Shown one piece after another: positions 52,410 through 64,000 of a DNA stretch of 64,000 bases. A program made the translations under genes and the position numbers. This DNA is from Escherichia coli (lineage in GTDB: Bacteria > Pseudomonadota > Gammaproteobacteria > Enterobacterales > Enterobacteriaceae). The stretch is taken from NCBI RefSeq assembly GCF_003018255.1, contig NZ_CP027440.1, one strand, 5' to 3'. The notes beneath the pieces are model-generated. The model was not told where the DNA came from. It was given only the letters and a program-made list of their open reading frames with translations, and did no database searches. Every line of letters starts with the position of its first letter. The first letter of the stretch is position 1.

Positions 52410-52829
52410 TTATCTCTCAAGTTCGTTCAGCGCATTTTTGACACGCTCTCTTAAACCGGCTTTCTCGTCGCTTTCTTCTACAGTATTTTCTTCGTCTTCA
52501 GAAGAAGAGGGAGCATTCTCAACCGCGACGTCTGGGTCATCTTCCTCCTCGACGGATTCGACGACGGGGAGTGGCTGTTTTTTGAAGAAATAGTGTTGTG
52601 TTGATTGTTTAAAAGCGGGCGTTTCAGCCTCTACAGTGACTTCTGCTTTTACTATCCAAAGCGCCCATAGCTGCCTGGCATACCCACCAACCAACACCAT
52701 TCCTGCAAACCACAGGCAAATCAGCAATAAACAAATGACATATATTATGGTGCTGTGTTTTTGTCGGGAGAAGATACCAGGGTGACCTGTTTCTTTCTGC
52801 TCACGCGCGGCGATATAGAATTCAAACAT
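52410..52829 (-). CDS. gspB: GspB (PinO), accessory protein of the type II secretion locus
   Basis: 139-aa ORF with a single TM segment and acidic C-terminus. Confidence 0.88.
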   Translation of the reverse strand: MFEFYIAAREQKETGHPGIFSRQKHSTIIYVICLLLICLWFAGMVLVGGYARQLWALWIVKAEVTVEAETPAFKQSTQHYFFKKQPLPVVESVEEEDDPDVAVENAPSSSEDEENTVEESDEKAGLRERVKNALNELER

Positions 52830-52830
52830 G

Positions 52831-54300
52831 TCATTTCCCCTTCACTGTTGTTTCCGGGGAAATATTTGCTTCATCCCGATATAAGTAGGCACTCTCCCCT
52901 GCCACCTGCCAGAGATGTACTAACGTTGAAAAGCCAACAACACCGTCAGTTTTCAAGTGGTGGCTTTTTTGAAATTGCTTTATTTTTTCTACCAACAAGG
53001 GACGCCACTCTGCCGAAGGTTCTGTCGAAATATGCAATGCGCGGTTTAACATCGTTTCCAGCCAGAGAATCTCTTCCTCGCTGCTATCACGCGTAATGGT
53101 ACTCTCCCCTTCCGGCGACATTTTCCATAACAGAAGATAATCACCCGTCCATACCGACTCAAACCATTGATGTGTCAGCGTCCAGGTTTGCTGCCCTACG
53201 AGGACATCAACGGTAGCATCACCGACGCGAACGACCACAACAGGCAATTTTTTGTCCCCGACTTTAAGCGATGCGATCCAGGGCAAATTCTGATCTACCA
53301 ATGTTTGTAAAGAAGCATTCCCACTTTTACATGCCAGCCCCGCTCTTACTGCCTGATCGCACCAGGCCGAATCAGCTGGGACCTCGTACCCCCATACGCC
53401 GTATAACACGCTTAGCGCCTCACTATCGCGCATCACTACATGAGCAATATCCTTAGTCATATCTTGTTTAACTACTGGCGTTACGGGTACCAGCCACGCA
53501 GGAACGGGGAACGGATCTGTGAAAGAGGACAGCAGTAGCCAACCACAGGTAAGTGCGATAATGGTTCCACTCATCACCACGGCAAGCTGCATTTTCCGGG
53601 GGCGGTTATCACCTAATACGCGGTAAATCATTCGCCAATGTTTTGCAGTGAAAACGCTGGTCTGCTCGGCTTGCTGTAATAAGCTAATTGTTTCGCCGGC
53701 AAGCGCCAGCTTTCTGCGATCTCCCCGACATAATAAAGCTATCCGTTTCAGAACTCTGGCAGTTAAAAGGAGATCGGGCTGGTCAATATTCTGACCTTCA
53801 AGGATGCTTGCCTTAAGCTCGTGCTCCATCAGACGTCCTGTTGAGACAAGTTCAATGCCCTGTTTTTTAAAATCACGTTCGACTTTTCGATCGGGTCTGC
53901 CGATCAGCAAAAATTGACCGTCAGGAATAAGAGATATCGCGCGTTGGAGATCATCAAGTATGCGGCGGTGATTCAGGTGAGCATTTTCAATAATAATAAG
54001 AGGGCAGCGACTATCAGTTCGATGAAGCGCATGCAGTAATTGACCCGCCATCTCATCTCGCGTCCAGGCGCTGTCACGGCAGCCCTGTTCAGCCGCATTA
54101 TCGTCGGTAACGATCCATGCGGCCTTACCTTGCGAGGAAACAACGAGGCTTAAAGTAATCACACGGCGATGTTTATCTTTTTGTAGTTGCTGCGCCAGCC
54201 AGGTTTTTCCACTTCCAGCCTCACCCAACAAATAGCACAGACGCCAGGTCTGACGTTTCTCACGCAACCAGGAAAGAATAACTTCTCTTCTCGTAGACAT
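52831..54300 (-). CDS. gspA: GspA, ExeA-like AAA ATPase of the type II secretion locus
   Basis: 489-aa ORF; Walker A GEAGSGKT near N-terminus; central TM segment. Confidence 0.9.
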   Translation of the reverse strand: MSTRREVILSWLREKRQTWRLCYLLGEAGSGKTWLAQQLQKDKHRRVITLSLVVSSQGKAAWIVTDDNAAEQGCRDSAWTRDEMAGQLLHALHRTDSRCPLIIIENAHLNHRRILDDLQRAISLIPDGQFLLIGRPDRKVERDFKKQGIELVSTGRLMEHELKASILEGQNIDQPDLLLTARVLKRIALLCRGDRRKLALAGETISLLQQAEQTSVFTAKHWRMIYRVLGDNRPRKMQLAVVMSGTIIALTCGWLLLSSFTDPFPVPAWLVPVTPVVKQDMTKDIAHVVMRDSEALSVLYGVWGYEVPADSAWCDQAVRAGLACKSGNASLQTLVDQNLPWIASLKVGDKKLPVVVVRVGDATVDVLVGQQTWTLTHQWFESVWTGDYLLLWKMSPEGESTITRDSSEEEILWLETMLNRALHISTEPSAEWRPLLVEKIKQFQKSHHLKTDGVVGFSTLVHLWQVAGESAYLYRDEANISPETTVKGK

Positions 54301-54479
54301 AGAACTTCCTGTTTTAATTATTGATTATCCTTAATCATAAAAATAATGTATGCATTTATTAATTAAATACATATTACTAATATAAATAAATTTTGCTTGA
54401 TTCATGCAAGCGGCATTAATACTATTTATACTAACGTCAATATACAACCCACCCAATCTATTTTATTAGAACATACATC

Positions 54480-61833: not shown

Positions 61834-62809
61834 TGAACAACGCGGCGTCGCGCTGCTCATTGTATTGATGCTACTGGCGCTCATGGCTGCACTGGCAGCA
61901 GACATGACGAGCAGTTTTCACGGCCAGCTTCAGCGAACCCGCCAGGTAAACCATCATCTGCAACGGCAATATGATATTGAACTGGCGGAGAAACTTGCGC
62001 TTGCCAGCCTCACCCAGGACGTTAAAGATAACGACAGACAGACCACGTTGCAGCAGTACTGGGCACAGCCGCAACAGTTGCAGCTGGAAGATGGCAATAC
62101 AGTGAAGTGGCAGTTACGCGATGCCCAGCACTGTTTTAATCTCAATGCGTTAGCAAAAATCTCTGACGATCCGCTGGCTTCCCCCGATTTCCCCGCCCAG
62201 GTATTCAGTGCGCTGCTGATTAACGCCGGTATCGATCGCGGAAACACCGATGAGATCGTGCAATCAATTGCTGACTATATTGATGTCGATGACTCACCAC
62301 GCTTTCACGGCGCAGAAGATAACTTTTACCAAAGCCAGACGCCGCCCCGGCATAGTGCCAATCAGATGCTTTTTCTGACCGGCGAATTGCGTCAGATAAA
62401 AGGCATAACCGAAAACATCTATCAGCGGCTTATCCCGTATGTCTGCGTTCTCCCAACCACGGAACTTAGCATCAATCTTAATATGCTTACGGAGAACGAT
62501 ATTCCGCTCTTCAGAGCGTTATTCCTCAATAACATCACGGATGCTGACGCTCGGGTCTTATTACAAAAAAGGCCCAGGGAAGGCTGGCTAACCACGGATG
62601 CATTTCTTTACTGGGCGCAGCAGGATTTCTCCGGCGTGAAGCCTCTGGTAGCTCAGGTGAAAGGGCATCTCTTTCCCTATAGCCGCTATTTTACGCTGAG
62701 TACGGAAAGTATCAGCGACGAACAATCCCAGGGATGGCAAAGCCATATTTTCTTCAACCGTAAACAGCAGAGCGCCCAAATCTATCGGCGTACGCTGCAA
62801 CTCTACTAA
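61826..62809 (+). CDS. gspK: Type II secretion minor pseudopilin K
   Basis: 327-aa ORF with N-terminal hydrophobic segment. Confidence 0.92.
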   Translation: MNNEQRGVALLIVLMLLALMAALAADMTSSFHGQLQRTRQVNHHLQRQYDIELAEKLALASLTQDVKDNDRQTTLQQYWAQPQQLQLEDGNTVKWQLRDAQHCFNLNALAKISDDPLASPDFPAQVFSALLINAGIDRGNTDEIVQSIADYIDVDDSPRFHGAEDNFYQSQTPPRHSANQMLFLTGELRQIKGITENIYQRLIPYVCVLPTTELSINLNMLTENDIPLFRALFLNNITDADARVLLQKRPREGWLTTDAFLYWAQQDFSGVKPLVAQVKGHLFPYSRYFTLSTESISDEQSQGWQSHIFFNRKQQSAQIYRRTLQLY

Positions 62810-62823
62810 TCATAAGGATCGTG

Positions 62824-63987
62824 ATGCCTGAATCGTTGATGGTCATACGTTCTTCCTCGACGCTGCGTAAGCATTGGGAATGGATGACGTTCTCCGCAGA
62901 TAGCGTATCTTCGGTACATACGCCCACGGACGATCTTCCGCTGGAGTCGCTGGCCGATCAGCCCGGTGCCGGAAATGTTCATCTTTTGATCCCACCAGAG
63001 GGCCTTTTATATCGTTCCCTCACGCTGCCCAACGCCAAATACAAACTCACCGCACAAACATTGCAATGGCTGGCAGAGGAGACGTTACCCGACAACACCC
63101 AGGACTGGCACTGGACGGTTGTCGATAAACAAAACGAAAGTGTCGAGGTGATAGGCATTCAGTCGGAGAAACTCAGTCGCTATCTTGAGCGTTTACATAC
63201 TGCCGGACTCAACGTGACGCGGGTTTTGCCAGATGGCTGCTATCTTCCCTGGGAAGTAGATAGCTGGACTCTGGTTAACCAGCAAACAAGCTGGCTTATT
63301 CGCAGTGCCGCACATGCCTTCAATGAACTGGATGAACACTGGTTACAGCATCTTGCTGCCCAGTTTCCGCCTGAGAATATGCGTTGTTATGGTGTGGCAC
63401 CTCACGGCGTTGCAGCGACCAATCCACTTATCCAGCATCCTGAAATACCATCACTGAGTTTGTATTCTGCCGATATTGCATTCCAGCGCTATGACATGCT
63501 GCATGGTGTTTTTCGTAAACAGAAAACTGTAAGCAAATCGGGAAAATGGCTCGCCCGCCTGGCAGTAAGCTGTCTCGTTCTCGCCATTCTTTCTTTTGTT
63601 GGCAGCCGGGGCATCGCGCTCTGGCAAACGCTTAAGATTGAAGATCAACTTCAGCATCAACAGCAAGAAACCTGGCAACGTTATTTCCCGCAGATCAAAC
63701 GCACCCACAACTTTCGTTTTTACTTTAAGCAGCAACTCGCTCAGCAATATCCTGAAGCTGTGCCGTTGCTCTATCATTTACAAACACTTCTGCTGGAACA
63801 CCCTGAACTGCAGTTAATGGAGGCGAACTATAGCCAGAAGCAAAAGTCGCTGACCTTAAAAATGAGTGCTAAGAGTGAAGCCAATATCGATCGTTTCTGT
63901 GAATTAACACAGTCCTGGCTTCCGATGCAAAAAACAGAAAAAGATCCGGTCAGTGGTGTATGGACAGTAAGGAGCTCAGGGAAATGA
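62824..63987 (+). CDS. gspL: Type II secretion inner-membrane protein L
   Basis: 387 aa from ATG 62824 (MPESLMVIRSSST); a GTG one codon upstream is an alternative. Confidence 0.92.
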   Translation: MPESLMVIRSSSTLRKHWEWMTFSADSVSSVHTPTDDLPLESLADQPGAGNVHLLIPPEGLLYRSLTLPNAKYKLTAQTLQWLAEETLPDNTQDWHWTVVDKQNESVEVIGIQSEKLSRYLERLHTAGLNVTRVLPDGCYLPWEVDSWTLVNQQTSWLIRSAAHAFNELDEHWLQHLAAQFPPENMRCYGVAPHGVAATNPLIQHPEIPSLSLYSADIAFQRYDMLHGVFRKQKTVSKSGKWLARLAVSCLVLAILSFVGSRGIALWQTLKIEDQLQHQQQETWQRYFPQIKRTHNFRFYFKQQLAQQYPEAVPLLYHLQTLLLEHPELQLMEANYSQKQKSLTLKMSAKSEANIDRFCELTQSWLPMQKTEKDPVSGVWTVRSSGK

Positions 63988-64000
63988 TTAAATCATGGTG
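63984..64000 (+). CDS. gspM: Type II secretion protein M, first codons only (continues right of window)
   Basis: ATG at 63984 overlaps the gspL stop; reads MIKSW; too short to judge independently. Confidence 0.6.

Follow-up and report, generated by a model that had tools for sequence, protein, structure and literature searches.

The final 11.6 kb (positions 52410-64000) of a 64,000-nucleotide stretch of Escherichia coli contig NZ_CP027440.1, hereafter the window, almost certainly represent the chromosomal gsp locus of this species, an intact alpha-type type II secretion system (T2SS-alpha) orthologous gene for gene to b3322-b3334 of K-12. The literature already covers this locus, as well as its substrate and its regulation in K-12. 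The first-pass annotation, made from the letters alone, had recognized a described K-12-type gsp cluster, and this identification was upheld by the collinearity of the genes, their chromosomal site, the protein family models, the match of the secretin to the solved structure 5WQ7 and a control region one base away from that of K-12. From rpsJ to the window end, the sequence aligned without gaps to MG1655, with 296 mismatches over 13,001 nucleotides (~97.7% identity). Gene order was collinear with b3322-b3334, the 12 complete genes corresponding to b3322-b3333, and nucleotide identity per gene ranged from 91 to 99% (97-99% for ten genes). The chromosomal site was also that of K-12, between the S10 ribosomal operon and bfr: rpsJ is found at 51861-52172 (minus strand), gspB begins 238 nucleotides further on, and bfr comes after gspO in identical genomes. 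Several E. coli chromosomes, NZ_AP027254.1 among them, were 100% identical to the window over 52410-64000; positions 1-50000 shared 99.57% identity with the same chromosome (BLAST), with small indels.

The gene map, based on the list of open reading frames and in agreement with the RefSeq annotation of NZ_AP027254.1, is as follows:

52410-52829, minus strand: gspB, 139 amino acids, single-pass membrane partner of GspA
52831-54300, minus strand: gspA, 489 amino acids, AAA-type ATPase and secretin assembly factor, with a peptidoglycan-binding domain
54301-54479: gspA/gspC divergent control region, 179 bp, AT-rich
54480-55295, plus strand: gspC, 271 amino acids, GTG start
55279-57231, plus strand: gspD, outer-membrane secretin of the alpha / Klebsiella type
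57241-58722, plus strand: gspE, secretion ATPase
58719-59915, plus strand: gspF, inner-membrane platform protein
59925-60362, plus strand: gspG, major pseudopilin
60370-60879, plus strand: gspH, minor pseudopilin
60876-61253, plus strand: gspI, minor pseudopilin
61246-61833, plus strand: gspJ, minor pseudopilin
61826-62809, plus strand: gspK, minor pseudopilin
62824-63987, plus strand: gspL, inner-membrane partner of GspE and GspM
63984-64000, plus strand: first 17 nucleotides of gspM, identical to the MG1655 gspM start, the rest lying beyond the window end

An alignment to MG1655, which had been proposed as a check for frameshifts and deletions, revealed no indel and no internal stop in the 12 complete genes, all of which had the same length, start and stop as in K-12. 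Overlaps were measured at exactly the six junctions named in the first-pass annotation (gspC-gspD, 17 nucleotides; gspE-gspF, 4; gspH-gspI, 4; gspI-gspJ, 8; gspJ-gspK, 8; gspL-gspM, 4), and the other junctions were gaps of 7-14 nucleotides. From these overlaps we infer that the genes concerned may be translationally coupled. The divergence of gspA and gspB, both on the minus strand, from a 179-bp region at 54301-54479 was likewise found at the coordinates first given. The description of the cluster as complete was not correct for the window, where gspM is cut after 17 nucleotides and gspO lies beyond the end. Downstream, the first-pass annotation had wrongly expected gspMNO; in NZ_AP027254.1, gspM (462 nucleotides) is directly followed by gspO (678 nucleotides) and then by bfr, and gspO is annotated as intact there and in MG1655. 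No gspN was present between gspM and gspO in the annotation of the identical genomes and MG1655, where gspM, gspO and bfr are contiguous, and the annotated locus contained no pilotin gene.

Family membership was assessed with curated NCBIfam equivalog models and their cutoffs for GspB to GspL, and with Pfam for GspA. GspB matched NF007250 (286.9 bits; cutoff 180), possessed a single hydrophobic segment (residues 23-52) and was identical to b3322 of MG1655 at 137/140 amino acid positions. GspA contained the Pfam domains AAA_22, GspA_C39-like and PG_binding_1, a Walker A motif (GEAGSGKT at residue 26) and a single hydrophobic segment (237-260), with 476/490 amino acids identical to b3323. GspC (TIGR01713, 291.1 bits; cutoff 101.6) and GspD (TIGR02517, 649.2 bits; cutoff 351.35) shared 268/272 and 648/651 amino acids with b3324 and b3325, respectively. 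Among solved structures in the PDB, GspD best matched 5WQ7 (1350.9 bits), the K-12 GspD, to which it is nearly identical, followed by 6HCG (721 bits) and the Vibrio-type secretins 5WQ8 (552 bits) and 5ZDH (544 bits). GspE (TIGR02533, 656.4 bits; cutoff 630.25) carried a Walker A motif (GPTGSGKS at residue 249) and two CxxC motifs forming a tetracysteine, including CPHC. GspF (TIGR02120, 547.9 bits; cutoff 424), GspG (TIGR01710, 184.1 bits; cutoff 88.85) and GspL (TIGR01709, 149.7 bits; cutoff 65; single hydrophobic segment 240-267) scored above their cutoffs as well, and GspH (TIGR01708, 168.5 bits), GspI (TIGR01707, 132.1 bits) and GspK (NF037980, 252.8 bits) all exceeded their cutoffs. The prepilin leaders that had been noted on gspG-K were present in all five proteins, with the cleavage context G|FTLLE in GspG (MRATDKQRG|FTLLE), GspH and GspJ, G|MTLLE in GspI, and G|VALLIVL, without the Glu at position +5, in GspK. 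The absence of Glu+5 is usual for GspK. Of the components expected of a T2SS, the window encoded a secretin, the GspE ATPase, the GspF/C/L platform, and one major and four minor pseudopilins, as well as the GspAB/ExeAB architecture, with an AAA domain, a transmembrane segment and a peptidoglycan-binding domain in GspA and a small bitopic GspB.

The spacer separating gspA and gspC (54301-54479) had a GC content of 23.5%, compared to a window average of 50.0%, the lowest of all 179-bp stretches in the 64 kb. Its AT-rich composition and its position were thus as first described, but the AT-rich tract is wider than the spacer (~54204-54716) and reaches the 5' ends of gspA and gspC. Relative to K-12, the spacer differed by a single base, at position 54353. 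It corresponds exactly to the K-12 fragment used as a SlyA probe in an electrophoretic mobility shift assay, its ends being the two primers of Curran et al. (PMC5797941), and the SlyA site proposed in that study (TTATATTAGTAA) was retained at 54374-54385 on the minus strand. In K-12, SlyA binds this spacer fragment, gspC-O is described as a cryptic, H-NS-repressed unit, and SlyA over-production raises gspCDEF transcripts 2.4-fold (PMC5797941). A published table of H-NS complex formation includes the same K-12 spacer among the 'promoter islands', and SELEX (systematic evolution of ligands by exponential enrichment) of RNA polymerase bearing either of two minor sigma factors gave peaks within gspC, adjoining the spacer. 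As the control region is one base from that of K-12, the same silencing would be expected under laboratory conditions.

The gspC gene starts with GTG, and the 20 nucleotides upstream (ttattagaacatacatc) contained no recognizable Shine-Dalgarno sequence; weak initiation at gspC, which heads the operon, may contribute to its low expression. Terminator-like sites between 52100 and 54700 were found at the level of shuffled sequences (3 compared to 2.9). In the Rfam scan of the whole window, no match fell within 52410-64000, the matches elsewhere being ribosomal RNA (rRNA), transfer RNA (tRNA), StyR-44 and the alpha-operon leader.

Several points weigh against reading this locus as an intact, silenced K-12-type system. 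At the protein level, GspA had no match among the NCBIfam models, and GspJ scored 63.5 bits with TIGR01711, 1.35 below the cutoff of 64.85, with a match spanning the whole profile and a GFxxxE domain above its own cutoff (30.2 bits; cutoff 16.3). The presence of gspM and gspO, both outside the window, is predicted by proxy from the identical genomes. In the control region, the number of promoter-like sites between 52100 and 54700 did not exceed that of shuffled sequences (4 compared to 3.9), so that the sequence does not allow promoters to be located. A scan for the 10-bp H-NS motif from the literature (TCGATAAATT), allowing at most two mismatches, gave 78 matches compared to 62.7 ± 8.1 in shuffles, which is not a clear enrichment, and near the spacer only weak matches with two mismatches occurred. 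The source strain is not K-12, and its crypticity is therefore extrapolated from K-12; we infer H-NS silencing in this strain from the near-identity of the control region. Finally, the statements on H-NS silencing and chitinase secretion come via papers citing the primary study (Francetic et al. 2000). For K-12 itself, H-NS repression and the chitinase ChiA as substrate, both given in the first-pass annotation, are so described in the literature.

T2SS-alpha secretes the chitinase ChiA in K-12, and GspO functions in that secretion (literature including PMC10329019). In the identical genomes, chiA lies outside the window, ~1.5 kb beyond the cluster, between bfd and tufA. It was present in 3162 of 5426 complete E. 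coli genomes, compared to 3170 for gsp. In a Trabulsiella species and an Enterobacteriaceae metagenome-assembled genome (MAG), chiA likewise adjoins a homologous cluster that occupies this site. The ratio of nonsynonymous to synonymous substitution rates (dN/dS) against K-12 ranged from 0.03 to 0.6 across the 12 genes, with values of 0.03 for both gspD and gspG, 0.06 for gspF and 0.07 for gspE, which indicates that the gsp genes are under purifying selection. In a 2024 pan-genome study, gspAB, gspC-O and chiA, as well as bfr and bfd, showed an association with mastitis isolates and mouse mammary-gland fitness, and deletion of chiA lowered adherence to mammary epithelial cells. The term 'cryptic' probably describes laboratory conditions rather than nature.

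Based on established T2SS knowledge, the proposed mechanism would start with the translocation of the putative substrate, the chitinase/lysozyme ChiA, into the periplasm by the Sec translocon. The GspE ATPase, docked on an inner-membrane platform of GspF, GspL, GspM and GspC, would power the building of a short pseudopilus, made of GspG and with GspH-I-J-K at its tip, which would expel the folded substrate through the GspD secretin; the prepilin leaders would be removed by GspO. The products of the divergent operon, GspA and GspB, would assist the secretin, which has no pilotin, in crossing the peptidoglycan and assembling. Both operons would start in the 179-bp AT-rich spacer, with the gspC-O side silenced by H-NS and counter-activated by SlyA, as in K-12.

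At the species level, the 11.6-kb stretch was matched in 3170 of the 5426 complete E. coli genomes (~58%), with at least 80% of its length covered in 3118. By comparison, rpsJ was found in every genome but one, and the sequence continued from it into gspB in 3161. The interval between the S10 operon and tufA, bounded by the spacer of the S10 promoter and the 3' end of tufA, occurred in two forms, which were compared over positions 5948-22594 (locus L001, long form) and 9497-11029 (loci L004 and L005, short form). The long form (16.6 kb) contains gspBA, gspC-O, bfr, bfd and chiA, whereas the short form (1.5 kb; O157:H7 and CNR85I8 inspected) contains a lone 155-amino-acid prepilin peptidase, bfr and bfd, without gsp or chiA. 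The short-form peptidase shared 40% identity with GspO over the C-terminal part of the latter. The flanks of the two forms were 99-100% identical; between the forms, nucleotide identity was 78.8% for bfr and 76.4% for bfd, falling to 57% and 48%, respectively, at third codon positions. The short form is not a clean deletion of the long form. Among the matches listed, many other Enterobacteriaceae had a Bfr with 95-99% identity to the short-form protein, whereas identity to the long-form Bfr was at most 94%, except in one MAG that is probably Escherichia DNA.

The left boundary between the forms was located at ~52357, inside the S10 promoter. The -10 (TATAAT, 52355-52350) and -35 (TTGCGT, 52377-52372) hexamers were kept in both forms, whereas the 16-bp promoter spacer and everything upstream differed, so that the context of the S10 promoter could also differ between forms. 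The gspB stop codon (52410-52412) is 33 nucleotides from the -35 hexamer. As the terminator scan of 52100-54700 found no terminator-like site between this stop and the S10 promoter, gspAB transcripts would read into the promoter.

These observations raise the tentative possibility of an ancient polymorphism between two deeply diverged forms, the gsp cluster belonging to one of them rather than being a simple accessory island. Replacement from another lineage may have introduced one of the forms; alternatively, both could have persisted for a very long time, perhaps through selection on ChiA secretion that depends on the niche. Co-variation of the accessory genes bfr, bfd, gsp and chiA is already recorded in the pan-genome study, which does not seem to treat them as alleles of a single haplotype. 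The gsp-chiA haplotype is relevant to work linking T2SS-alpha and ChiA to mastitis and colonisation.

The same chromosomal site was surveyed in species-representative genomes anchored on Bfr, the matches listed including no Escherichia or Salmonella. Among these matches, a full T2SS was present at the bfr-rpsJ site in Yokenella, Chimaeribacter, Enterobacter sichuanensis, Citrobacter braakii, Citrobacter amalonaticus, Trabulsiella, Rahnella and the MAG UBA5654, the last being the closest (GspD 84% and ChiA 72% identical). Also among the matches listed, Silvania, Pluralibacter, Kluyvera, Franconibacter and Buttiauxella had the lone peptidase only, and the site was empty in Xenorhabdus, Photorhabdus, Providencia, Proteus, Erwinia and Pantoea. 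The occurrence of a T2SS at the same site across genera points to an old resident that has been repeatedly lost, and not to a recent foreign island. In addition, DXKH01000010.1 (locus L006), a contig of a MAG labelled Citrobacter sp. HRGM_Genome_0066, encoded Bfr, Bfd, GspO, GspM, GspL, GspK and ChiA with 95-100% amino acid identity to their long-form counterparts in E. coli; the contig probably derives from Escherichia, its bin having been mislabelled or contaminated.

This distribution bears on the origin of the locus, as its presence/absence polymorphism within the species, its very AT-rich control region and the H-NS repression reported in K-12 could also suggest a recently acquired island, silenced by H-NS as xenogeneic DNA. 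The composition of the cluster argued otherwise: gspB-gspO had a GC content of 49.4%, which matches that of the genome, compared to 50.0% for the window, and the AT-rich part was restricted to ~500 bp around the spacer. Moreover, neither mobility genes nor a tRNA flanked the cluster, and Yokenella, Citrobacter, Enterobacter, Trabulsiella, Chimaeribacter and Rahnella also have a T2SS between bfr and rpsJ. A recent foreign origin was therefore rejected as quite improbable. The idea that the cluster is a functionless, decaying relic, kept by chance and heading for loss, fared no better and was rejected as highly improbable, even though it would agree with the silence of the locus in laboratory K-12 reported in the literature, its absence from ~42% of complete E. 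coli genomes, the IS4-like insertion inside the cluster of one genome (NZ_CP006834.2) and the GTG start of gspC without an obvious ribosome-binding site. A decaying locus is hard to reconcile with 12 intact reading frames without indels relative to K-12, the dN/dS values of 0.03-0.6, the retention of at least 80% of the 11.6 kb in 3118 of the 3170 carriers, the presence of this cluster at the bfr-rpsJ site of several further genera, and the pan-genome association of gsp and chiA with mastitis isolates and mouse mammary-gland fitness.

The purifying selection on all genes may also be read as a sign that the locus is not truly cryptic in this lineage and is expressed under host or environmental conditions, where it would aid colonisation via ChiA, 'cryptic' then applying to laboratory K-12 only. 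The link of gsp, chiA, bfr and bfd with mastitis strains and in vivo fitness, the lower adherence after chiA deletion, and the SlyA-dependent 2.4-fold increase of gspCDEF transcripts in K-12 point in the same direction, whereas a control region one base from that of K-12 does not. Such expression is possible but somewhat doubtful, and it is compatible with, not opposed to, the preferred explanation of an intact ortholog of the K-12 T2SS-alpha locus.

Within the cluster, divergence from K-12 was concentrated at ~61000-61900, where gspI and gspJ were 91.0% and 92.5% identical in nucleotides, compared to 97-99% for the other gsp genes. Their synonymous divergence (dS) was 0.26-0.29, against 0.01-0.12 in the other gsp genes. 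This gspI-J allele was found at an identity of at least 99% in 76 of 3127 genomes (~2% of gsp-positive genomes), whereas a K-12-like allele (~92% identical) was found in 3016. The divergent segment is probably an imported recombinant patch of ~0.9 kb covering the two minor pseudopilin genes; both genes were intact and under purifying selection. Another case of strain variation was observed in NZ_CP006834.2 (APEC O2-211), where an IS4-like ISVsa5 transposase is inserted in an otherwise 99.9% identical gsp cluster, an example of gsp inactivation in a close relative.

Elsewhere in the window, secY, encoding the core of the Sec translocon, was located at 41668-42999 (minus strand), inside the spc ribosomal operon, and represents a second protein-export component. 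The Sec translocon is generally understood as the first step for type II substrates. The gsp cluster is thus not the sole secretion machinery of the window, as the first-pass annotation had stated. The window also contained acrS and acrEF (~11866-17200), the latter encoding a resistance-nodulation-division efflux pump (AcrEF, ~12.9-17.2 kb). The divergent spacer between acrS and acrEF (12488-12889) was strongly AT-rich, with a GC content down to 0.268, a composition resembling that of the gsp control region, and a further AT-rich stretch followed acrF (17176-17471). The rRNA operon (22322-27665, minus strand) included a pair of 5S genes with a tRNA-Thr between them, as well as tRNA-Ile and tRNA-Ala in the 16S-23S spacer and a StyR-44 match adjoining the 23S gene. 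Between acuI and accB (~3707-4094, plus strand), a partial pseudogene is annotated in a near-identical genome as the sulfoxide reductase heme-binding subunit YedZ.

Compared to known systems, the locus shares its machine type and homologous core components with the E. coli T2SS-beta, whose secretin is of the Vibrio type, and Vibrio-type secretins matched this GspD less well. T2SS-beta is encoded at another locus (yghJ/sslE-pppA-yghG-gspC-M), depends on the pilotin GspS/YghG, uses the peptidase PppA, and exports heat-labile enterotoxin (LT) and SslE; none of these features (pilotin, LT/SslE, PppA or the locus itself) was present at the gsp locus here. The Klebsiella Pul system possesses the pilotin PulS, a pulN gene and pullulanase as its substrate, and the gsp locus differs from it in having no pilotin gene and in carrying the divergent gspAB pair. 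The likeness between the two lies in the secretin, as 6HCG, which we take to be the Klebsiella secretin, was the second-best solved structure for this GspD (721 bits). The decreasing scores from 5WQ7 to 6HCG and then to the Vibrio-type structures agree with the alpha / Klebsiella-type class, GspD-alpha being classed as a Klebsiella-type secretin (PMC10329019).

As in ExeAB, GspA unites an AAA domain with one membrane segment and, at the C-terminus, a peptidoglycan-binding domain, and a small single-pass GspB is encoded immediately downstream. GspA and GspB are described as scaffolding proteins that act on peptidoglycan and let the secretins ExeD and OutD reach the outer membrane, whereas for E. 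coli GspAB a part in assembling GspD-alpha has been proposed, not demonstrated (PMC10329019); GspA and GspB of the present strain may act likewise. The closest counterpart was the gsp locus of K-12 MG1655 (b3322-b3335), which agrees with the 12 complete genes here in gene content, order, lengths and overlaps and has the same chromosomal site and, but for one base, the same 179-bp spacer. The source strain is other than K-12 and differs most in its gspI (91.0% identical) and gspJ (92.5%). The comparison confirms an intact, selectively maintained copy of gsp in a non-K-12 strain.

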